From: Eledone cirrhosa
Taxonomy: Eukaryota
Length of the DNA: 64,000 nucleotides
Assembly (NCBI GenBank): GCA_964016885.1
Contig: OZ024746.1
Coordinates: forward strand, 89,900,001-89,964,000
Direction of reading: 5' to 3'
Shown here: positions 489 to 63,760 of the stretch, in pieces
Layout of the letters: every line of letters begins with the position of its first letter
Position numbering within the stretch: the stretch's first letter is position 1
The notes under the pieces: model-generated
Database searches by the model: none
Told to the model about the DNA's origin: nothing
What the model saw: only the letters and a program-made list of their open reading frames with translations
Made by a program: the position numbers and the translations under genes

Positions 489-3400
489 TCTCGCCGGACG
501 CCTCATCGTGGCGAAGGGGTGCCAACCACTTATCTTATTGGGCAAAGAATCGGCAAATACAGGCGGCAGGCGTCGGGTTAGAAACCCAGCACTGCTGTAA
601 AAATTCTAACCGCTAAAGAAACAGCAAGAAAAAAAAAAATGAAAAAAAAAACGATCTGCGTAAAGATGAAGGCGTGGGAAACACTCCACTCGTGACGGAC
701 CTCAACTAAAGCCGAACGTACGTTGGTGTTCCGATAAGCCGGATTCTGAGCACCAAAACAATGATGCAAATTGTAACTTGGAACGTGCGTACACTATACT
801 TCGCGAGTTCGACCACTACCTGCTGGACATTCTGGGCGTGAGTGAAATGTGCTGGAGCGACAGCAGAAAGATGAGTTCCAGCGGAGACACAATTCTGCTC
901 TACTCTTGACACCAAGACAAGTATGATCATGGCGTTGGACTTGTGCTTAGCGCCACAGAAACTCGAGCATTGATCGGATGGGAGCCAGTCAGCGAGCATA
1001 TTATAACCTCCCATTTTCAAAGTGGGCATGCGAAAATCATTTTTGTTCAGGGTTACGCAACGATTGATGACGCAACCGACATCGACAAGGACGCCGTCTA
1101 TAAACAGCTGCAGAACACATTTAATAACTTGCCCAGCCATGACATCAAGCTACTGATCGGTGATTTAAAAGCTCAGATTTGCTACAACAGACAGGGACTG
1201 GAACAGGTCACTGGGCCATTCGGTTCTGCTGCGGTCACCAAGGACAACGGGGAGTTGACTGCAGCTGTTTTGTGCCATCAGCAGCTTGTGCATTAGCCAC
1301 ACCTATTTCAAACAAAAGGCGGTTCACAAGGTTATTTTGCAGTCTGCGGACCAAAAAAGCCGAAATGAATTCGACTAGATCTGCATCAACCAGCGCTGGC
1401 GGTCCTCGGTACATGACCTCAGAGTGCATCGAGTTGCGGACGTGGGATCAGACCACCACCTACTGCGTGCGGAACTTCAGCTGCGCCTGAAGAATCGGAC
1501 ACGACAGGAAAGACCAAAGCCATATGCAGTGGAGAAGCTGAAAAAACCCGGCCAAGCGCGACTGTACCAACTGGAGCTACACAACCGATTCCAGCAGTTG
1601 AGTGAGGCTGCAGATCTGGAAGATCAATGGGCGATGTTCACGACAGCGGTGACTTAGGCGGCACAAGAAACTATTGGCCGAAGACGAGGAACGAAGAGGG
1701 AAAAATGGATCCAAGAACCAACGTGGAACCTGATTGACAGATGATTAAAGGCAAATGTCGAGCGAGATTCTGCCACATCGGAAGAAGACCACAAGAAAAG
1801 AGATGCCGTATAGCGCCAAATCGACCGACTGGTAAAGCGAACCTGCATGCGGGACAAACGTGACTGGCTGGAGAAGAAAAGTGCTGAGGCAGAGGAAGCT
1901 GCTGGTCAAAACGACACAAAAGCACTGTTCCGCATCGTGAGGGAGTTGACAGGAATGTCGAGCGGTGCCAGCATGACAGTGAAGGACACAAATGGCAGAC
2001 GTTTGCCACTGGAGCGGAACAGGAGCAGAGATGGTTGGAGCACTTCAGGGAGACGCTGAACCAACCAAATCCGGTCGCCCTGATAGACTTGACCGCAGAG
2101 ATTCCAGTAACCACTGAGGTACTCAAAGTCTGCGAGGACCATATCACCAAGCAAGAGACGAGAGATGCGATTAGCCACTTGAGGAACGGCAAAGTAGGCG
2201 GACGGGATGAGATCTCTGCTGAGCTGGTCAAATTCGATGAGGAGAGCACTATAACGGCGTTGAGAGACTTGATGAACCACTGCTGGACTGTTGGTCGGGT
2301 TCCCCTTGAGCGGCAGTGCAATGAAGGGAAACCTGGAAGACTGCAACAACTGGCGTGGTTTCACATTGTTGTTAGTCCCAGGCAAGGCGTTCTGCACTGT
2401 GCTGCTGCGTCGACTCCGGCAGGCTGTCGACTCTGTGCTCCGGGAGGAACAAGCCGGCTTCCGAAAAAATTGATCTTGCACGGAACATCTTTACACTACG
2501 CAACATTCTCGAACAATGCGTTGAGTATTTAGCGGTCAATGTTATTGATTTCCAGAAGGCATTTGACACTGTACACCGGGAGTCGCTGTGGAATGTTGCG
2601 CAACCATACGGCATTCCTGCAAGATTCATCGCCAATTTCAAGGCCCTGTATGGAAACTCCACCTGCTGCGTGCGGACTGAGTCCGGTGTGACGGATTTAT
2701 TTGACATTGTCTCCGGAGTCAGACAAGGTTGCATTCTCTCTCTACTGTTGTTCCTGCTGGCAGCCGATTTCGTACTAAGGCAAATGGATGAAGGACCCGG
2801 TCGAGTAATCTCATGGAGAGGGCAGTTGAGGCTGGGGAACCTAGCATTTACCGACGACATCACTTTGATCGTTGAAAACAGGCCCTAACAACATCCCTAC
2901 AAGAGAGTGCGGAGAAAAGATCGGCCTGAGAATCAAAACCAAAATAACCAAGGTCATGAAAACGGCCAACACAGGTCCAGTGATCAGAGTCAACCAACAG
3001 GACCGCGAGGAAGTCGATCACTTAACCTATCTGGGCAGCATCATGACAAGCAGCGGCGACGCGGAGCTCGACATCAACTGTCAGATTGGTAAAGGAGCCG
3101 CAGTTTTCCAGCGATTGTGCCCAGTCTGGTCGTCTTCATGCATTAGCACCAAGACCAAGCTCTGACTGTACAAGAGCATCGTGCTGCCGACAATGATATA
3201 TGCGAGCGAGACCTGGAAGATTATGGCAAAAATAGAGAGATGGTTGAACGCTTTCCACCAGCGGTGCCTGCGAAAGATCATTCGTGAGTCCTGGCACGAC
3301 CGAGTGTGAAACGAGGAGATCCTGCGGAGAGCCGAGTCATGGACGCTGCAGAGAGTTGTCAGGGAGCGTCGGTGCTGTCTGGCTGGCCATATTCTGCATC

Positions 3401-3626
3401 TGCCAAATGAACGGCATTCGAAAACAGCGATGAACTGGACTCCGCCTGGCGGTAAACAGAGGTTGTTTGCCCATGGATCACCTGGCGACGAACGTTCCGC
3501 AAGGATCTGATGGCAGACATCATCACCTGGCACGGTCTCGAAAATGTTGCTCTGATCGTGACCGTTGGGTCACATGACTGGTCGATGCGCCGAACGGCAC
3601 GGAGGATCTAAGACTAAGATTAAGAT
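487..3626 (+). mobile_element. Near full-length, decayed RTE-clade LINE (APE endonuclease plus RT; many stops and frameshifts)
   Basis: Motifs in order across frames: IVTWNVRTL (~771), LLIGDLKAQI, GSDHHL, WRGFTLL, EEQAGFR, GVRQGCILS, LAFTDD (FADD-like), YLGS, YASETW, AMNWTP. The 3' end is a short tandem tail (ctaaga/ttaaga, ~3608-3626). Visibly GC-richer than its flanks. Confidence 0.92.
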
Positions 3627-23991: not shown

Positions 23992-24049
<58 letters not shown>

Positions 24050-24053
<4 letters not shown>

Positions 24054-25580
24054 TTATGCTTACGGAGAGTCTAGTTGCCAATAAGAAACACACGCACCAG
24101 GTGCTTTCATTTCAATTTATTATAAAGTAAATTTATAAATTTCCGGTTGGTTGGTCGTTTCCACAACCAAACGATTGTTCATATATTGTCAAAGTTCTTT
24201 TGTCACACATTCTGTGACCTCTTCAGTGGCTGGGGATTCTTTTCTTTGTTTTTGAGGCGCTTCTTTGTTCTGTCTTATGCCATCTTGTTTTTGTTGTGTG
24301 CCTAGTTTGCGCTTGTGTTACATCCGGGTGTCTGTGTGTGTTTATATTTGTTTATTTATTTGTTTATTTACATGTTACTGGTTGGTTGTTTGTTCTATGT
24401 TTGTGTGTGTTTTCATTCCGTCCTTAATTGTAAGTTGTGATGTTGCTATTCTATTCATGTTTTCTATTTAATTTTGGTTGGAATTCATTTATGGTTATTG
24501 CCTTTGTGATTTGTCTAAAAATTGCGTCTTTTTTTGTGTAGATTCTATTTTTATTTCTATGTTCTCTAATTTACCCTTATGTTCTATTTTAGCATGTTGG
24601 TGGAGTACAGATGATTCTTTACTATCTTGAAGCTCTCGCCAGTGTTGATTTATCCGCTTCCCTATACTACGAGCTGTCTCACCTATGTACACTATATTCT
24701 TATCTCTACATTGTCCTTCAGTATATATTATGCTATATACTACATTTTTAGTTTTACAGTTAATATGGGGGCTTAGTTTAGAGATTATACGTTTCTCATC
24801 TATACAGGTAGGTCTTTGAAAAGGATGTGTATTGCTAATAAGTGTTTTTTATGGAGGTACCTGGTCTTTCTACTCTCTTAATATTGAGTTTATATATATC
24901 TAGGGCCCTATATAAATGTGTCAGCTAATTCACCTCTAAGGGTTGTATCGATGAACATTACACCCTGGTATTTATTGTTATCATACCATGAGTTTATTCT
25001 ATTAACCTTATTCCTAGTTCTTTCTATTCTATTACAACATTTGCTCCTATACATCGGTCAGGTCCCATTTGTATCATTATTTACCATGTTTTCCCATTTG
25101 GTTCTGGCTCCTCTATATACTCTGATTTTATCTCTCAGATTGTAACCAGAGAACTGCATACGGTGGATGAAGTGTTGTATGTGTCTCTCTAGTTCTTTGG
25201 GGTTGCACATGCGGGACACGTTTCTCATCACCCGTTCCAAATCCGCAATGAGTATGTTGATTTTGGTAGGGTCCGAAACAGCGGAGCTTCGGTGGATCAG
25301 ATATTTGTAAGTCATGGGTTTGGCATAATGGGAATGGAGGATTTGTTTTTTGTTATTAATGGAATCTAACCAGAGCTCTGTGTCTAGCACAGGGAATCGA
25401 TGGTTGGGGTGTTTTCTTGGGTAGTCTATAGTAGCTCTAATACTCTGGTGGATGGAGTTAGCTATTTGCTGGATGCTTTCCATGGTGTTTTTCTCTAATT
25501 ACAGACTGTTCTCTAGTGTTTTTTTTTCACTACGATGTTTATATCATCAACGTAGCGGGAGTACATTATCAGGTTTAAGA
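24050..25580 (-). mobile_element. 5'-truncated decayed PLE, sister subfamily (B) of the 44.7-52.8 kb element
   Basis: YSRYVDDINIV near 25540-25565, MESIQQIANSIHQS...PVLDTELW...RMQFSGY, YIGETARSIG. The 3' UTR matches 29092-29560 and 63465-63720. Confidence 0.92.
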
Positions 25581-29099: not shown

Positions 29100-30217
29100 A
29101 TACTTTGGGAGGGTGATGTTGCCAATATGAAACACACGCACCAGTTGCTTTCACTTCAATTTATTATGAATTAAATTTAGAAATTTCCGGTTGGTTGGTT
29201 GGTTCCACAACCAGACGATTGTTTGTATATTGTCAAAGTTCTTTCGTCACACATTATGTGACCTCTTCAGTGACTGGGGATTCTTTTTTTGTTTTTGTGC
29301 CTCTCCTTTGTTCTGTCCTACGTCATCTTGTTTTTGTGTGTGTTGTCTGCTTAGTTTGCGCATGTGTTACATCCGGGTGTCTGTGTGTGTTTATATTTGT
29401 TTATTTATTTGTTCATTTTCATGTTACTGGTTGGTTGTTTGTTCTATGTTTGTGTGTGTTTTCATTTTGTCTTTAATTGTAAGTTACGATGTTGCTGTTC
29501 CATTCATGTTTTCTATTTAATTTTGGTTGGAGTTCATTTATGTTTATTGCCCCTGTGATTTGGCGAGAGCTTCAAGATAGTAAAGAATCATCTGTCCTCT
29601 ACCAACATGCTAAAATAGAACATAAGGGTAAATTAAAGAACATAGAAATAAAAATAGAATCTACACACATAAAAGACGCAATGTTTAGACAAATCACAGA
29701 GGCAATAAACATAAATGACTCCAACCAAAATAAATAGAAAGCATGAATGGAATAGCAACATCACAACTTACAATTAAGGACAACATGAAAACACACACAA
29801 ACATAGAACAAACAACCAACCAGTAACATGGAAATAAAAAAATAAATAAACAAATATAAATACACACAGACACCCGGATGTAACACATGCGCAAACTAAG
29901 CACATAACACACACACAAACAAGATGGCGTAGGACAGAACAAAGGAGAGGCACACAAACAAAGAAAATAATCCCCATTTACTGAAGAGGTCACATAATGT
30001 GCCACGAAAGAACTTATGAACAATCGCCTGGTTGTGGAACCAAGCAACGAACCGGAAATTTATGAATTCCTAAATTTATAAATTTAATTTATAATAAATT
30101 GAAGTGAGACTGTTGGTGCGTGAGTTTCCTATTGGTAACATGACCCTCCCAAAGTATAAGAATATTGGTTTCAACACACGTTTTCATATACAGAATCTTC
30201 CTAAACAAATTCAGAAA

Positions 30218-31202: not shown

Positions 31203-32616
31203 TTGAATTCTTTAAATCGGAAAATTCCTCAACTTCGCGGTGGAATTTATCGTGACGATGGACTTGTTACTATCTTAAATTGCAATTTAGTTAACCTTAA
31301 TAATATTAAGAACAATATACGTGGTCTCTTTAAGCAACATAACCTTAAAATCGAATTTGATAACGTCAAACTAGCTAACTTCTTGGATATATCCCTTAAT
31401 CTTGACACTGCCCTATATTACCCTTACCATAAAAACAATGAGAATCTAAATTATGTTAATTTTAAATCTAACCACCCAACTAACATTAAAAATGCTATAG
31501 TCAGTAATATTGGAAAAATAATATCCTCTAATAAAAATATATTTGGTGCTAACGCCAATTAATATGATAATGCGCTTTCTAAAGCCGGATATCCTGATAA
31601 AATTAAATACAGTAACAAAACCAATCCTAGAATGTCTTACAGTAAAATAATTAATTATGATCATTCCAATAACTTAAATATAAGGCCTAGATACAAAAAT
31701 ATAATCTGGTATAATGCTACTTTCTCTATTTCTATTAATAATAATTGTTTCTACGTTAGGCACAAGGCCAGCAATTACCCAATGTCTAAACTATTCTTTA
31801 GGGCCTTAGATAAATGCTTACCTCCCTCACATATCTATCGTAGAATCTTTAACAAACATACAATAACATTTTCCTATTCCACCTCCTCCAACATCTCTAA
31901 CATTATCTCTAAACACAAAAATAAAATATTAACTATTAAATCACATCCTTCCAACACTGAGCGTCATAATAATAACTGTAGTACTCCCGACGTCATTGTT
32001 AACTCTAGGCAGAGATTCTGCAAACTCAAATACGACGTCAAATGTAATTTCGTTGTATGTTCATAATACCAATCTAAATCAGGAAAATATTATTCCTATC
32101 GTAGATATCGTCTCCAATCCAATTCCTCCTATAAATAACACTAGATCACTTGTTAATAACTCTGTTAATCTCTCTAATCGCAATTGTAATTGCCCTGTTA
32201 GAACTAAATGTCCTCTCAGTAACCATTGTCTTGATTAAAACTTAGTCTATGAATGTAAGGTTATAACTGATACCAATTCCTTTACCTATTTCGGTTCCAC
32301 TTCCACCTCCTTCAAGGCTAGATTTTATAACCACAATTAGTCTTTTAGATACCAACTTAAAATAACTAACACGGCACTCTCAGAACTCATATGGTCCTTG
32401 AAAGACAAACAATATTAGCTATAACATCTCTTGGAGAAAAGTTTGTTCTGCCTCTCCCTACTTGAATGCCTCCCTATCCAGAACATGTAATCTTTGCCTA
32501 TTACTGAGAAAATTACCATTATATCTAATCTCAATTCTATAATAAATAGACGCACTGATTTATTTTCTCTCTGCTTGCATAAATTCCACAGAACATTCCA
32601 CAAAGTATACACCTAA
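31203..32616 (+). pseudogene. Hydra-type PLE RT-GIY-YIG pseudogene (5'-truncated, with stops and frameshifts)
   Basis: GGIYRDDGL, NFLDI, SNHP, IIWYN, IFNKHTITFSYS, CNC...CPL..HC, LVYECKV, YFGST...FKARFYNH, IWSLK, CNLC...EK...NRR..L...CLH. The CxC linker before a C-terminal EN fits the Hydra clade. Confidence 0.82.
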
Positions 32617-44692: not shown

Positions 44693-44737
<45 letters not shown>

Positions 44738-44999
44738 CGGCGATGAATTAGTTTTGCGAGGTTTTTTATATGAAATCGTGTGTCGAAACAGATATTGTTA
44801 TATTTGGGGAGGGTCATATTTGCGTAATATTGCCAGAATTAATAACAGAACACACTCACTGTTTGGTTGGTTTTCGCTTCTCGCTGTCTTTTATATATAT
44901 ATATCTGCGATCTAACTTACTCGGTCCTCAATGTTGCCATTGACTGACCGGCGGTCAAAAATAATACAGATACAATATAGACAAACACATATATATATA

Positions 45000-45046
45000 G
45001 TTTACATAAATCTTTCGTTGCACATCTGCAACATCGTCAGTGGTGT
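45000..45046 (-). ncRNA. Hammerhead-like motif in PLE 3' UTR/pLTR (mirror of 52510-52556)
   Basis: CTGACGA t gttgca-gatg-tgcaac GAAA gattt a. Confidence 0.6.
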
Positions 45047-45319
45047 TATATTCATTGTTCCTCCTGTTGTGTTGTATGTCTACGCCATTTTTGTTTGTGT
45101 TCAGTCTGTCTATATATTTATTTATTTATTTATTTGCTTGTTTGTTTATCTTATTTTATTTTGTCTTCTTTGCGCATGCGTTTGCGTGTGTGTATAGTGT
45201 TATGTGTGATGTGTGACTAGTGTGTATAGTGTTGTGTCTGCTGGGTGACTAGTGTGTGTTTATGTGCTTGTGTATGTATTTATTTATCTTATTTTATTTA
45301 ATTTAATTTACTTATTTAT

Positions 45320-48300
45320 TTATACTTCTCTTAGGTCAGTGTTGTTTGTTTGGGTGTTGTTGTTGTTCCACTCATTCTTTCTGTTTAGCTTTGGTCTTCT
45401 AATTTCTATTTCACTGGCCTCTCTGATTTGCCTATCTGCTGGGTCATTCCTATGTTTAGATATTATTCTAATTTCTATGTTGTCTATGTTACCGTCATGA
45501 TGTTGTCTAGCATGTTCGTATAGTACTGACCCGTTTTTTCGTCCTTTTAGTTCCCCCCAGTGTTGGTCTATCCTTTCACCTATGCTACGAGCTGTCTCAC
45601 CTATGTATGTTGTTGTCGTGTTTCTGCAAGTACCCTCTGTACATCTTATGCTATAGACTACGTTTCTAGTTTTACAGTTTATCCGGGGGTTCACCTTACA
45701 TATGATACATTTCCTATTGGTACAGTGGGTTTTCTTAAAAGGGTAGGTTTTGCTGATCAGGGATTTTATGGTGGTTCCTGGCTTTTCTACCACCTTTATT
45801 TTTAAGTGGGTCTTTCTCAGGGCCTTTCTACACTGGTTAGCTAATTTCCCTCCAGGGGTGGCGTCCACAAACATGACACTCTGATATCTCTGGTTGTCGT
45901 ACCATGATGTGGCCTTCCCTATCTTATGTCTAGCCCTATCTAAGCTATTCCATGATTTGCTCCTGTATAGTGGGCAAATTCCTTTCATGTCCAGTTCTAT
46001 GAGGGTCTTATACTTTTCCATGGCTCCTTCGTATACTCTGACTCTGTCTCTTTGGTTGTAGCCAGAGAACTGCATGCGGTTGATGAAGTGTTGGATGTGT
46101 CCTTCCATTTCTGTTGGGTCGCACATGCTGGACACATTCTTCATCACTCGTACCAAATCTGCGATCAGAATATTAAACTTAGCACTACTGGACATTGCTG
46201 AGTTTTTGAGTATCAGGTATTTGGAGGCCATGGGTTTAGCATAGTGTGAGTGGAGAATTTGGGCTCTCTCGTCTATAGTGTTAATCCAGAGTTCTGTGTC
46301 TAATACAGGTAGTCTATTGTTAGGGTGTTTGGAAGGGAAGTCTATAGTTACAGTTATACTCTGGTGTATGGAATTAGCTATCTGCTGGACGCTTTCCATC
46401 GTGCTACGTTCTAAATCAAACTTGTTAGTGCTCTCTAGTGGGGGTGTTCTTATAACTATATTGATATCGTCTACATAACGAGAGTACATGATGAGGTCTA
46501 TGGAGCTTTCATTAAGGAGATCTTTAAGTCTCCTTTCCCACCATACCATGAAAAGGTTGGCAACATCGCCAGCTATGCTGACGCCGATGGCTGCTCCCTC
46601 ATTTTGGGTGTAGATTTTCTCATTGAACTTAAATATGTGGCCCTTTAGGGTAGTTTTGATACTAGCCCCTATTGCATGTGCGACCATTTTTCTTACCTGA
46701 TCAGTGTTTTGGGGGGTCCGTATAGCTTTGGTCCACCCAATCCACCTTCCTATGGGAGTCTTTTTAGCCATTGAGGTTATGGTGGGGGGTCTACCTCTTA
46801 TAGGTCTACTAGGGCAGAAACATCTAAGGTCATGGCTGTCTAGGTAGTCAGTGTCGTAGGTAAGTCTAAGTAGGAGGCCCAGTTCGTCTGTGTCGACGTC
46901 GCAGAACTCCACCTCACTCTCAATGATCATCTCCACACATCTTTTCACAGCAAAATCAATGTTAATGGATGGGTACAGTGACACCACATCCATGCTGCCT
47001 ATTATGCAGTTGGATAGGCTCCTGTTTTTGTTGCACTCACTGATTCTGCTGAGGAGGTCCTCTGTACTTTCACATACATCTGGGGACATCTTGATTATGG
47101 GGCGTATAACCATTGAGAGGAAGTAGGAGATCCTGTAGTTGCTAGCTATATTAGCTCCGCATACAGGTCTTGTTGGTGGTCCTATTGTCGGGTCGTCGAC
47201 TGTCTTGTGGTCTTTGCGGAGCCCATACAAGGGTGGTATGCCATTGTTAGACGCCTGGAAGTTGTTGGCAGTGCGTCTGCTTGGCTTTAGGATGTCAGTC
47301 CACATCATCATGTGAGCGTTGAGGATTTTTTCTCTCCCATCGTGTGTTAGTTGTGCAACTTCGCTCGTGTTGGTGATGTGGGGTTGCATTGCCTCGATGT
47401 AGTTCGGCATGCTATCTATTGACATCCTACCAGACTTATCTGTGGGTAGACACACTACCTCACCATCCCTTGTGCGCTGCTTGAGGCTAACCAAGCCTTC
47501 TACAGGTTTTATCCCAAGTTGTTGGGCCTCTGGTCTGCTCTGTCTCATAGTGTACCTGTCTACTACTTGTCTAATCTTATTTCTAGCTATGGTGAACTGT
47601 GCCTCCGTCTCGTCATCTATTTGTTGTGGTATGCAAACTCTTTTATTAAAGGGTAACCTCGTAGGATAGATATTACCCATCTTATATGTTTTGTCAGCTG
47701 GGTTGAAAAATAGTTTCTCTAAGGGGTTGTCGTTATTTCTATCGTCATAGTTGTGTGTGTTGCTATTATTGTTATCATGGTGGTTGTTGTTGTTTCTATC
47801 CTTAGCATTAATATTATTATTGTTATGATTGCTAGATGTATTGTTGTTTACTTCACCGTTATTGTTGTTGTTGTTACTGCTATTTCTACCATTGTGGTTG
47901 TTACTATTATTATGTTTCTTGTTTTTGTTGATGTTGCTACATGTACTATTTCCATTATTACCACTGTGGTTATTGTTGTTGTTGTTGTTCGTATTGTTAC
48001 CGTTATTACTACTGTGGTCACTGTTGTTGTGTCTGTGGTTAACGTTTCTATTATTATTATTATTGTGGTTGTTGTTGTTCTGTCTATCGCTAGTATTATT
48101 ACCATTATCACTATTTCTCACTTTCCTGCCATTGTTATGGTTATGGCTGTTATTTCTATACCCAGAGTTATTGTTTATATTACTACTACCGTTATTATTG
48201 TTGTTGTTGTTTACCTTTGCATTCCAACGTATTTTTGTGAAACACTTTTCCAGCTCCGTTTTGCATTCCATAGGATTAATCTTTTTGTAGATGGCAAATT

Positions 48301-48887
48301 TTGGTGGTAACTTTAGGATTTGTTGTTCTTGTTCACTGATTAAAGTGTTCCCATAGATATTTACTGTGTGGTCATTGGTAAATTCTTCCGGTAGTTTTAC
48401 ATCACTCATACGGATGTTGTCGATGTTATCTGGGTATTTTTGAGAATATTCGATTTTCCTTTCTTGTAGTTTTTTCTTATTCATCCATTCTAATTTCTTC
48501 TTGAAATGCCTACAGCATTCGTTTTGAGCATATTTCGTTTCGCGTCGGATGACGCTCATGAAGTCATCTCTCTCGTTTGCTGTGATGAGATTTCGGATTT
48601 CCTTACCGTTGATGCGTTTTTGTCTGTAGAGTGCGTTGACTTTTGTGTATGTTGTTCTTTTCATATTAACTGTTATTGTGTGTTTTAGCCGTTCAGCTTG
48701 TGTTTTGTTCAATAATAAATTATTTACTTGTTTTGATATGTTTGTTGTGTATGTTTTGGAGGAAACACAGTGTTTTAAGAAGCGGATTTGTTCTGTTGTT
48801 ATTGTAGTTTTTATATAACAGAAAACAGTGTCTTTCAATAACCTTTCAGCTTGGCACAAGCTAATGCCATAGCGGCGATGAATTAGT
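45320..48887 (-). CDS. PLE polyprotein: RT plus C-terminal GIY-YIG endonuclease, uninterrupted but lacking its first ~22 codons
   Basis: PTDKSG, LYGLRKDHK, RPVC, SMDVVSLYPSI, GAAIG, YSRYVDD, LPVLD, CTNRKCIIC linker, NVVYSIRC...YIGETAR...R...H...H...H, RQIREASEI, LNRKNEW. The track start at 48859 is a TTG (Leu), and the frame stays open to ~48887. Confidence 0.95.
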
Positions 48888-48891
48888 TAAT

Positions 48892-51800
48892 ATGAAAAGA
48901 ACAACATACACAAAAGTCAACGCACTCTACAGACAAAAACGCATCAACGGTAAGGAAATCCGAAATCTCATCACAGCAAACGAGAGAGATGACTTCATGA
49001 GCGTCATCCGACGCGAAACGAAATATGCTCAAAACGAATGCTGTAGGCATTTCAAGAAGAAATTAGAATGGATGAATAAGAAAAAACTACAAGAAAGGAA
49101 AATCGAATATTCTCAAAAATACCCAGATAACATCGACAACATCCGTATGAGTGATGTAAAACTACCGGAAGAATTTACCAATGACCACACAGTAAATATC
49201 TATGGGAACACTTTAATCAGTGAACAAGAACAACAAATCCTAAAGTTACCACCAAAATTTGCCATCTACAAAAAGATTAATCCTATGGAATGCAAAACGG
49301 AGCTGGAAAAGTGTTTCACAAAAATACGTTGGAATGCAAAGGTAAACAACAACAACAATAATAACGGTAGTAGTAATATAAACAATAACTCTGGGTATAG
49401 AAATAACAGCCATAACCATAACAATGGCAGGAAAGTGAGAAATAGTGATAATGGTAATAATACTAGCGATAGACAGAACAACAACAACCACAATAATAAT
49501 AATAATAGAAACGTTAACCACAGACACAACAACAGTGACCACAGTAGTAATAACGGTAACAATACGAACAACAACAACAACAATAACCACAGTGGTAATA
49601 ATGGAAATAGTACATGTAGCAACATCAACAAAAACAAGAAACATAATAATAGTAACAACCACAATGGTAGAAATAGCAGTAACAACAACAACAATAACGG
49701 TGAAGTAAACAACAATACATCTAGCAATCATAACAATAATAATATTAATGCTAAGGATAGAAACAACAACAACCACCATGATAACAATAATAGCAACACA
49801 CACAACTATGACGATAGAAATAACGACAACCCCTTAGAGAAACTATTTTTCAACCCAGCTGACAAAACATATAAGATGGGTAATATCTATCCTACGAGGT
49901 TACCCTTTAATAAAAGAGTTTGCATACCACAACAAATAGATGACGAGACGGAGGCACAGTTCACCATAGCTAGAAATAAGATTAGACAAGTAGTAGACAG
50001 GTACACTATGAGACAGAGCAGACCAGAGGCCCAACAACTTGGGATAAAACCTGTAGAAGGCTTGGTTAGCCTCAAGCAGCGCACAAGGGATGGTGAGGTA
50101 GTGTGTCTACCCACAGATAAGTCTGGTAGGATGTCAATAGATAGCATGCCGAACTACATCGAGGCAATGCAACCCCACATCACCAACACGAGCGAAGTTG
50201 CACAACTAACACACGATGGGAGAGAAAAAATCCTCAACGCTCACATGATGATGTGGACTGACATCCTAAAGCCAAGCAGACGCACTGCCAACAACTTCCA
50301 GGCGTCTAACAATGGCATACCACCCTTGTATGGGCTCCGCAAAGACCACAAGACAGTCGACGACCCGACAATAGGACCACCAACAAGACCTGTATGCGGA
50401 GCTAATATAGCTAGCAACTACAGGATCTCCTACTTCCTCTCAATGGTTATACGCCCCATAATCAAGATGTCCCCAGATGTATGTGAAAGTACAGAGGACC
50501 TCCTCAGCAGAATCAGTGAGTGCAACAAAAACAGGAGCCTATCCAACTGCATAATAGGCAGCATGGATGTGGTGTCACTGTACCCATCCATTAACATTGA
50601 TTTTGCTGTGAAAAGATGTGTGGAGATGATCATTGAGAGTGAGGTGGAGTTCTGCGACGTCGACACAGACGAACTGGGCCTCCTACTTAGACTTACCTAC
50701 GACACTGACTACCTAGACAGCCATGACCTTAGATGTTTCTGCCCTAGTAGACCTATAAGAGGTAGACCCCCCACCATAACCTCAATGGCTAAAAAGACTC
50801 CCATAGGAAGGTGGATTGGGTGGACCAAAGCTATACGGACCCCCCAAAACACTGATCAGGTAAGAAAAATGGTCGCACATGCAATAGGGGCTAGTATCAA
50901 AACTACCCTAAAGGGCCACATATTTAAGTTCAATGAGAAAATCTACACCCAAAATGAGGGAGCAGCCATCGGCGTCAGCATAGCTGGCGATGTTGCCAAC
51001 CTTTTCATGGTATGGTGGGAAAGGAGACTTAAAGATCTCCTTAATGAAAGCTCCATAGACCTCATCATGTACTCTCGTTATGTAGACGATATCAATATAG
51101 TTATAAGAACACCCCCACTAGAGAGCACTAACAAGTTTGATTTAGAACGTAGCACGATGGAAAGCGTCCAGCAGATAGCTAATTCCATACACCAGAGTAT
51201 AACTGTAACTATAGACTTCCCTTCCAAACACCCTAACAATAGACTACCTGTATTAGACACAGAACTCTGGATTAACACTATAGACGAGAGAGCCCAAATT
51301 CTCCACTCACACTATGCTAAACCCATGGCCTCCAAATACCTGATACTCAAAAACTCAGCAATGTCCAGTAGTGCTAAGTTTAATATTCTGATCGCAGATT
51401 TGGTACGAGTGATGAAGAATGTGTCCAGCATGTGCGACCCAACAGAAATGGAAGGACACATCCAACACTTCATCAACCGCATGCAGTTCTCTGGCTACAA
51501 CCAAAGAGACAGAGTCAGAGTATACGAAGGAGCCATGGAAAAGTATAAGACCCTCATAGAACTGGACATGAAAGGAATTTGCCCACTATACAGGAGCAAA
51601 TCATGGAATAGCTTAGATAGGGCTAGACATAAGATAGGGAAGGCCACATCATGGTACGACAACCAGAGATATCAGAGTGTCATGTTTGTGGACGCCACCC
51701 CTGGAGGGAAATTAGCTAACCAGTGTAGAAAGGCCCTGAGAAAGACCCACTTAAAAATAAAGGTGGTAGAAAAGCCAGGAACCACCATAAAATCCCTGAT

Positions 51801-52236
51801 CAGCAAAACCTACCCTTTTAAGAAAACCCACTGTACCAATAGGAAATGTATCATATGTAAGGTGAACCCCCGGATAAACTGTAAAACTAGAAACGTAGTC
51901 TATAGCATAAGATGTACAGAGGGTACTTGCAGAAACACGACAACAACATACATAGGTGAGACAGCTCGTAGCATAGGTGAAAGGATAGACCAACACTGGG
52001 GGGAACTAAAAGGACGAAAAAACGGGTCAGTACTATACGAACATGCTAGACAACATCATGACGGTAACATAGACAACATAGAAATTAGAATAATATCTAA
52101 ACATAGGAATGACCCAGCAGATAGGCAAATCAGAGAGGCCAGTGAAATAGAAATTAGAAGACCAAAGCTAAACAGAAAGAATGAGTGGAACAACAACAAC
52201 ACCCAAACAAACAACACTGACCTAAGAGAAGTATAA
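48892..52236 (+). CDS. PLE polyprotein, second (more 5'-truncated) identical copy, 1114 aa
   Basis: Identical translation to the minus copy from MKRTT onward. YVDD at 51079-51090, VVY at 51895-51903, YIG at 51949-51957. Confidence 0.95.
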   Translation: MKRTTYTKVNALYRQKRINGKEIRNLITANERDDFMSVIRRETKYAQNECCRHFKKKLEWMNKKKLQERKIEYSQKYPDNIDNIRMSDVKLPEEFTNDHTVNIYGNTLISEQEQQILKLPPKFAIYKKINPMECKTELEKCFTKIRWNAKVNNNNNNNGSSNINNNSGYRNNSHNHNNGRKVRNSDNGNNTSDRQNNNNHNNNNNRNVNHRHNNSDHSSNNGNNTNNNNNNNHSGNNGNSTCSNINKNKKHNNSNNHNGRNSSNNNNNNGEVNNNTSSNHNNNNINAKDRNNNNHHDNNNSNTHNYDDRNNDNPLEKLFFNPADKTYKMGNIYPTRLPFNKRVCIPQQIDDETEAQFTIARNKIRQVVDRYTMRQSRPEAQQLGIKPVEGLVSLKQRTRDGEVVCLPTDKSGRMSIDSMPNYIEAMQPHITNTSEVAQLTHDGREKILNAHMMMWTDILKPSRRTANNFQASNNGIPPLYGLRKDHKTVDDPTIGPPTRPVCGANIASNYRISYFLSMVIRPIIKMSPDVCESTEDLLSRISECNKNRSLSNCIIGSMDVVSLYPSINIDFAVKRCVEMIIESEVEFCDVDTDELGLLLRLTYDTDYLDSHDLRCFCPSRPIRGRPPTITSMAKKTPIGRWIGWTKAIRTPQNTDQVRKMVAHAIGASIKTTLKGHIFKFNEKIYTQNEGAAIGVSIAGDVANLFMVWWERRLKDLLNESSIDLIMYSRYVDDINIVIRTPPLESTNKFDLERSTMESVQQIANSIHQSITVTIDFPSKHPNNRLPVLDTELWINTIDERAQILHSHYAKPMASKYLILKNSAMSSSAKFNILIADLVRVMKNVSSMCDPTEMEGHIQHFINRMQFSGYNQRDRVRVYEGAMEKYKTLIELDMKGICPLYRSKSWNSLDRARHKIGKATSWYDNQRYQSVMFVDATPGGKLANQCRKALRKTHLKIKVVEKPGTTIKSLISKTYPFKKTHCTNRKCIICKVNPRINCKTRNVVYSIRCTEGTCRNTTTTYIGETARSIGERIDQHWGELKGRKNGSVLYEHARQHHDGNIDNIEIRIISKHRNDPADRQIREASEIEIRRPKLNRKNEWNNNNTQTNNTDLREV

Positions 52237-52509
52237 ATAAATAAGTAAATTAAATTAAATAAAATAAGATAAATAAATACATACACAAGCACATAAACAC
52301 ACACTAGTCACCCAGCAGACACAACACTATACACACTAGTCACACATCACACATAACACTATACACACACGCAAACGCATGCGCAAAGAAGACAAAATAA
52401 AATAAGATAAACAAACAAGCAAATAAATAAATAAATAAATATATAGACAGACTGAACACAAACAAAAATGGCGTAGACATACAACACAACAGGAGGAACA
52501 ATGAATATA

Positions 52510-52556
52510 ACACCACTGACGATGTTGCAGATGTGCAACGAAAGATTTATGTAAAC
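52510..52556 (+). ncRNA. Hammerhead-like motif in PLE 3' UTR/pLTR
   Basis: CTGACGA at 52516-52522, one extra nt, 6-bp stem II, GAAA at 52540-52543, very short stem III. Stem I is weak. Confidence 0.6.
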
Positions 52557-52660
52557 TATATATATATGTGTTTGTCTATATTGTATCTGTATTATTTTTG
52601 ACCGCCGGTCAGTCAATGGCAACATTGAGGACCGAGTAAGTTAGATCGCAGATATATATA

Positions 52661-52741
52661 TATAAAAGACAGCGAGAAGCGAAAACCAACCAAACAGTGA
52701 GTGTGTTCTGTTATTAATTCTGGCAATATTACGCAAATATG
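52661..52741 (+). promoter_or_regulatory. Candidate pLTR promoter/5' UTR: TATAAAAG upstream of the element's true ATG (52739)
   Basis: TATAAAAG at 52661-52668, Inr-like acagt ~30 nt downstream, then an ATG conserved in subfamily B. Sequence inference only. Confidence 0.35.
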
Positions 52742-52756
52742 ACCCTCCCCAAATAT

Positions 52757-52828
<72 letters not shown>

Positions 52829-62854: not shown

Positions 62855-63370
62855 AGGATGATGTGGTTGAGAAGAAGAGCAAAGCTTGGATGGCGTTCTA
62901 CAGTTTGAGATCTGTGTGGAAGTCAGACCATCGTAAAGAACTGATGATCCGTCTCTTCGTTGCTACAGTGTTGGTCTGAGAATTGCAAACTGACCAAGAA
63001 ACCCACTCAGATGGTGGATGAGTGTTACATGAGAATGATGGGTTACATGATGATGCTCTGAACATTAATAAGTATACTCTGAGGATGAAGAACTCAGATA
63101 TGTGCCGGAGCCTCCGAAAGGTCAGCTTGAAAGTGACACAGAGGAGATTGAGGTTAGCTGGACATGTGCACCGACATTCAGAGTTGACACTGCACTCGGT
63201 ACTCATGTGGGAGACCCTAACCGGACACACTAGAAGAGGGAGACCGAGCTTGACATATGTTGATGCCCTATGGAGAGACACATGTCTCTTTGAGACGCAG
63301 GACATGGCAGGGACGATGAAGGTCAAAACAACTGGAAGAACTCGTCCATGGATCTCGGGAATTTTACTCG
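62855..63370 (+). mobile_element. RTE-type LINE 3' fragment (family of 21296-21785)
   Basis: KAWMAFYSLRSVWKS, RRLRLAGHVHRH, RRGRPSLTYVD. Confidence 0.85.
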
Positions 63371-63372
63371 TC

Positions 63373-63760
<388 letters not shown>

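Follow-up and report, generated by a model that had tools for sequence, protein, structure and literature searches.

An apparently undescribed lineage of Penelope-like elements with a C-terminal nuclease and a conserved, predicted-folded insert at the position of the telomerase insertion in fingers domain

In the survey by Craig et al. (PMC8557442), Penelope-like elements (PLEs) with an N-terminal endonuclease (EN) are described as having an insertion in fingers domain (IFD), whereas canonical PLEs with a C-terminal EN have no insert between reverse transcriptase (RT) motifs A and B', and Coprina elements have sporadic IFD-like regions; what these inserts do in PLEs is a question raised in that paper. 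Counted by hand on Fig. S1 of the same source, motifs A and B' lie 58 residues apart in Penelope, 57 in XtropNep4 and 81 in Naiad-Amil, and among telomerase reverse transcriptases (TERTs) 107 in Arabidopsis, 110 in S. pombe, 115 in human and 149 in Tetrahymena. A CX2-5CxxC linker is likewise already known as a feature of Neptune and Nematis. Here we describe a PLE found in a window of 64,000 nt from Eledone cirrhosa (GCA_964016885.1, OZ024746.1:89,900,001-89,964,000, forward strand), the whole stretch of DNA analyzed, to which all positions below refer. The element apparently represents an undescribed PLE lineage, with a conserved insert that is predicted to be folded and that lies at the IFD position.

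The RT core of this element, with the DKS motif at its start and motif E at its end, lies at 50101..51288 (+), within an open reading frame (ORF) at 48865..52236. The codon for the motif A Asp starts at 50566 and that for the motif B' Gln at 50950, 128 codons apart (50566..50952, +), as an earlier note on this DNA had stated, and all of the motifs quoted in that note are present where it placed them. The insert proper is about 71 aa long (50638..50850, +) and comprises a putative ELGL(Y)L helix, putative acidic helices, a basic CPxR..GRxPxxT loop and an RW motif. It does co-occur, as also claimed, with a short C-x4-C-x2-C-x7-C linker of Nematis-type length (51832..51882, +; CTNRKCIIC from 51832) and with a C-terminal GIY-YIG endonuclease (VVY...YIGET), read from the sequence at ~51895..52188 (+) together with its CCHH and R/H/E/N residues.

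A protein search found 280 homologues, and the figures given here are from the 120 listed, which together with the window protein make 121 aligned rows. The A-B' spacing is 126-132 in 117 of these rows, the remaining four being cut at the N-terminus, and 116/120 homologues share both the spacing and the motifs, so that the 128-codon spacing is not a chance occurrence. Nematis-like proteins have a spacing of 55-60 (114 of 115 scorable, of 120), and among other PLE-like RTs (59 scorable of 74) it is 54-64 in 43 and 79-97 in 16 that are Naiad/Chlamys-like; across the C-terminal-EN and EN-less PLEs sampled it is about 54-64. The claim that canonical C-terminal-EN PLEs have roughly half the spacing seen here is thus borne out, both by the range measured and by the 57-58 of the published rows (PMC8557442). 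The total spacing of 128 lies above 100 residues and falls within the TERT range of 107-149.

The insert-bearing homologues are 33-68% identical to the window protein. Rows with an identified host come from Octopus vulgaris, Holothuria leucospilota and Sanderia malayensis (an octopus, a sea cucumber and a jellyfish), with most rows being metagenome proteins, and the family sharing the insert spans at least three animal phyla. Pairwise identity averages 38% over the insert and 45-50% over the flanking RT, and insert positions E191, G193, L194, R217, G221, P224, R237 and W241 are near-invariant (92-98%). The CPxR..GRxPxxT loop carries a net positive charge in 121/121 rows (median +4), the first half of the insert is net acidic (median -5), and the insert as a whole is constant in length to within 6 residues and in frame in every scorable homologue. 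Other features are shared to different degrees: DKS is present in 84, KDHK in 97 and GGAIG in 114 of the 121 rows, the CX2-5CxxC linker pattern in 91 of the 120 homologues, and the EN is C-terminal in all 61 of those 120 in which its motif was found. Within the E. cirrhosa genome the insert protein sequence is identical (100%) in 150/150 scored matches, and a 24-mer within the insert has 1,272 exact matches, with 0 for the reversed control; the family is therefore very young and present in high copy number.

An AlphaFold2 model of the RT core has a mean predicted local distance difference test (pLDDT) score of 94.7, with 92-98 across the insert, and a separate model of 130 residues predicts the same insert helices. 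The insert is accordingly modeled as folded, consisting of small helices and a basic loop, and is both conserved and predicted to be structured, contrary to the unconserved and unstructured insert that the earlier note had named as refuting its proposal. The helices that flank it in the model, following motif A and preceding motif B', align with those of PLEs that lack an insert, and hhalign matches the A-B' profile to that of Nematis-like RTs at 98.5% with a single clean gap of ~71 columns. When the 121 inserts were compared with 16 Naiad/Chlamys-like inserts by hhalign no match was obtained (probability 0.5% over 5 columns). In a structural search with the RT-core model TERTs were the best matches, a result that applies to the RT core as a whole, with the overlaps given as ranges of positions.

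We placed the family in two unrooted trees, one with LG+G4 (47 rows) and one with LG+C20 and posterior mean site frequencies (PMSF; 36 rows, without Hydra), using PLEs from the E. cirrhosa genome and from contigs of metagenomes and metagenome-assembled genomes (MAGs). Groups in this panel are stand-ins, assigned from where the nuclease lies, from the linker and from motifs rather than by name, and the insert columns dropped out at the 75% occupancy filter. The panel recovers the published pattern in which Neptune-like rows are paraphyletic to Coprina-like rows. The insert family is monophyletic with 100/100 support in both trees, on a stem of 0.98 (LG+G4) or 1.28 (LG+C20 PMSF), and is sister to six motif-defined Nematis-like rows with support of 99/95 under LG+C20 PMSF, without Hydra, and 84/52 under LG+G4. 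The suggestion of a distinct lineage therefore stands: this is one strongly supported, long-stemmed clade, and no description of it was found in the literature searched. The RT-core phylogeny proposed in the earlier note, as run with these stand-ins, supports the clade itself and a tentative affinity to Nematis, with approximately unbiased (AU) tests rejecting the Neptune-like placement only.

The reading that we consider probable is that this is a very young, high-copy PLE with a C-terminal GIY-YIG nuclease, from a lineage probably allied to Nematis, whose insert of ~70 residues was likely gained independently of telomerase. Independent gain is indicated because the insert profile has no match to the Naiad/Chlamys inserts and because the best trees join the family to insert-less Nematis-like elements; the likeness to telomerase is thus most likely convergence, and the insert most likely not a telomerase relic. 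This runs counter to the relevance to telomerase origins that the earlier note had proposed.

Several observations weigh against this reading. In the AU tests a grouping of the family and Naiad/Chlamys-like rows is not rejected (p 0.082 and 0.081), nor is one with Coprina-like rows (p 0.084), with Poseidon-like rows (p 0.175) or with Hydra (p 0.44); the only rejection is of the family with all seven Neptune-like rows (p 0.034), which do not form one clade in the trees. Long-branch attraction is possible given the length of the family stem, and TERTs, Athena and named Nematis sequences are absent from both trees. The family lacks two motifs of Nematis, DKxxEF and KTHK (78/96 and 111/120 in the Nematis-like set), and its DKS and KDHK motifs are shared with Hydra, so that in these it resembles Hydra more than Nematis. 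The fold of the insert, moreover, is a predicted one.

A rival reading is that the family is a major PLE clade of its own rather than a Nematis branch, perhaps near Hydra, with the insert as an independent signature. The family stem is close in length to the Naiad stem, the DKS, KDHK and GGAIG motifs are distinct, and joining the family to Hydra costs only 0.7 log-likelihood units. We nonetheless think this unlikely, since the mixture model, albeit run without Hydra, places the family firmly with Nematis-like rows, and since it has the Nematis-length linker and CCHH, the latter being absent from Hydra (PMC8557442).

A similarly low probability attaches to a reading in which both lineage and insert have already been catalogued, as 'Penelope' families in Repbase or Dfam or in Arkhipova 2006, and only this copy is new. 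Our literature search did not reach those three sources, so prior cataloguing is conceivable, and members are present in the public proteomes of the octopus, sea cucumber and jellyfish named above; Craig et al. do mention the sporadic IFD-like regions of Coprina. However, these authors surveyed Repbase families and assign the IFD to N-terminal-EN PLEs, 'unlike canonical PLEs', and the strings ELGLY, GRPPT, LYPSLD and LYPSID have 0 matches in their supplement, in which long rows were covered to 400 characters only (PMC8557442). In the literature that was searched, as far as its text was available, we found no description of a C-terminal-EN PLE lineage with such an insert.

Much less probable is true homology of the insert with the TERT IFD, which would have been kept from a common ancestor of PLEs and TERT and lost in the other C-terminal-EN PLEs. 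The insert resembles the TERT IFD (IFDa-TRAP-IFDc) in position, in similar total length and in its two flanking helices, and in the model the RT core is structurally closest to TERT. In contrast, TRAP/IFDb of TERT is largely an extended beta sheet (PMC10055720), whereas short helices and a basic loop are predicted for the insert; 'telomerase-like', as the earlier note had it, is thus borne out for position and length and not for the predicted fold. We are just as doubtful of the larger proposition that the family forms a deep PLE clade of its own that has retained a distant homologue of telomerase's IFD alongside a C-terminal nuclease; if true, it would serve as a model, active in transposition, of the RT that gave rise to TERT. 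Finally, it is scarcely credible that the insert has no function, being a tolerated extra piece that is unstructured or spliced out: it does show lower conservation than the RT on either side and the ORF does tolerate a 162-aa Asn-rich run, but its length is held nearly constant across widely divergent proteins, it has near-invariant residues and a confidently predicted fold in two models, and every scorable homologue carries it in frame.

On the reading that we favor, the insert would have been gained once, on the stem of the lineage. It is predicted to form small helices placed between the two helices that all PLEs have following motif A and preceding motif B'. The conserved basic loop would contact template RNA or primer DNA and hold the duplex, a TRAP-like role by a different fold, to which we give about even odds; a function in processivity or duplex holding is putative. 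Judging from PLEs already studied (PMC11167929), the nuclease would make cuts in both strands of AT-rich DNA, and target-primed reverse transcription would begin internally, at two sites close to where the ORF starts, giving rise to an inverted pair and a tail. In PAc, a PLE of the anole, two internal sites of RT initiation correspond to the tail (PMC11167929). The lineage's insert is larger than that of Naiad, TERT-like in length and apparently of separate origin; if so, independent expansions have occurred several times at the A-B' position, and having an 'IFD' should not count as evidence of closeness to telomerase.

The organization of the locus goes beyond what the earlier note reported, in that the PLE is present twice in the window, head-to-head, with 44792-48671 and 48885-52764 being 100% identical over 3,880 bp. 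The right copy (48885..52764, +) is 5'-truncated, with a short 3' end that adjoins the (TA)n of the right flank (52765..52820), and its RT-EN ORF (48865..52236, +) is 1123 aa from stop to stop, without its N-terminus. The inverted left copy (44737..48888, -) is about one full unit with a permuted start and a long 3' end bearing a 55-bp tail, next to the (TA)n of the left flank (44698..44736); its RT-EN ORF (45320..48886, -) is 1188 aa from stop to stop, with the A-B' segment mirrored at 46604-46990. The ORF start codon and first codons are repeated at the 3' end (52739..52764, +), as in a pseudo-long terminal repeat (pLTR) or tandem organization. Elsewhere in the genome the unit is 4117-4129 bp and forms tandems and inverted pairs, and intact complete ORFs of 1209-1210 aa in tandem copies begin with the ATG whose second occurrence lies at the 3' end. 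TA-rich repeats adjoin 17 of 17 readable terminal ends (18 ends in the loci examined), and all six insertions readable at both ends pair a short 3' end with a long one, differing by ~41-55 bp.

Upstream of the RT is a low-complexity segment of 162 aa with 51% Asn (49345..49830, +), and no such Asn-rich run is present in any of 46 long homologues (46/46). The 3' non-coding part contains a putative hammerhead-like core (CUGANGA, stem II, GAAA; 52516..52543, +), for which there was no Rfam match and no formation of stems I and III in monomer folds. A decayed older 3' remnant of a related subfamily (24437..25577, -, with 24045..25577 as its wider extent; 69% nucleotide identity), ending in (TA)n, has a hammerhead-like core near 24198-24226 in which the stem II sequence differs with pairing kept and GAAA is changed to AAAA; the remnant begins past motif B' and hence does not cover the insert. 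An additional EN fragment lies at 29561-29713 (+). With Pfam, the best match of the window protein is RVT_1, below the cut-off, and GIY-YIG is above the cut-off in homologue P0099 with no match in the window protein; because coverage of the family is this poor, it is likely under-annotated in invertebrate genomes. Near-identical sequence to window positions 49850-52200 is also present at low depth in sequencing runs of two organisms (coded B and C), with 0-5 differences in pieces of 345-732 bases, which may reflect related hosts, contamination or transfer.

Other sequences related to these elements were seen in the same window and genome. A 167-aa frame at 31563-32066 (+) resembles the thumb and linker of Hydra-clade PLEs, as judged by eye against Fig. 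S7 motifs and an own-genome Hydra-like copy. Broken RT fragments resembling long interspersed nuclear elements (LINEs) lie at 1671-3569 and 62898-63501; by their motifs we take them to be of RTE/CR1 type. The genome also contains Neptune-like, insert-less Nematis-like and Poseidon-like PLE families and very abundant Hydra-like ones (51,473 first-look candidates), while searches with three patterns found no Naiad. Naiad-like PLE RTs, four with an N-terminal EN, were encountered on contigs of genomes filed as bacterial and probably reflect contamination of MAGs by host DNA. An exon for the C-terminal extension of TERT (PF21399) is found with equal scores at C27:13140648, 14254631 and 14728979 of the E. 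cirrhosa genome, and no RT exon was recognized in 100 kb around the match at C27:13140648.

In its general features the element is a C-terminal-EN PLE, having a single ORF with a telomerase-like RT as well as a C-terminal GIY-YIG nuclease with CCHH, together with partial tandems, an inverted 5'-truncated copy and an optional tail; the tandem and inverted layout and the tail are as described for PLEs (PMC8557442; PMC3846280). The Asn-rich Penelopes of Adineta vaga (PMC3846280) similarly have a long in-frame Asn-rich segment, a pLTR with the first codons and an optional tail, although their segments are 460-554 aa with 25-30% Asn and lie between RT and EN or between RT and thumb, unlike the shorter and richer upstream segment seen here. 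Naiad and Chlamys (PMC8557442) share extra A-B' sequence with the family, and Naiad a (TA)n bias, with inverted copies and a tail, but their EN is N-terminal and their inserts of ~20-40 aa, at a spacing of 79-97, give no profile match. The Hydra clade shares KDHK, DKS/T, the C-terminal EN and (TA)n targeting, but lacks CCHH and an A-B' insert, has a modified CxCX5C linker and is short (713-aa ORF in this genome). Neptune is alike in its C-terminal EN, CX2-5CxxC linker, (TA)n targeting and tandem and inverted layout, whereas its spacing is 56-59, its linker after CxxC is ~20 or more residues (Fig. S2 and own-genome copies) compared to 7 in the window element, and it groups with the family in neither tree. 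Nematis differs in its spacing of ~58 versus ~129 and in having DKxxEF, KTHK and AMG in place of the DKS, KDHK and GGAIG of the family, which sits on a long separate stem; nevertheless, Nematis_Cr, _C4 and _Pp (PMC8557442, Figs S2 and S7) share its C-terminal GIY-YIG nuclease, CCHH and short CX2-5CxxC linker, and the Nematis-like stand-ins are the nearest group in both trees.
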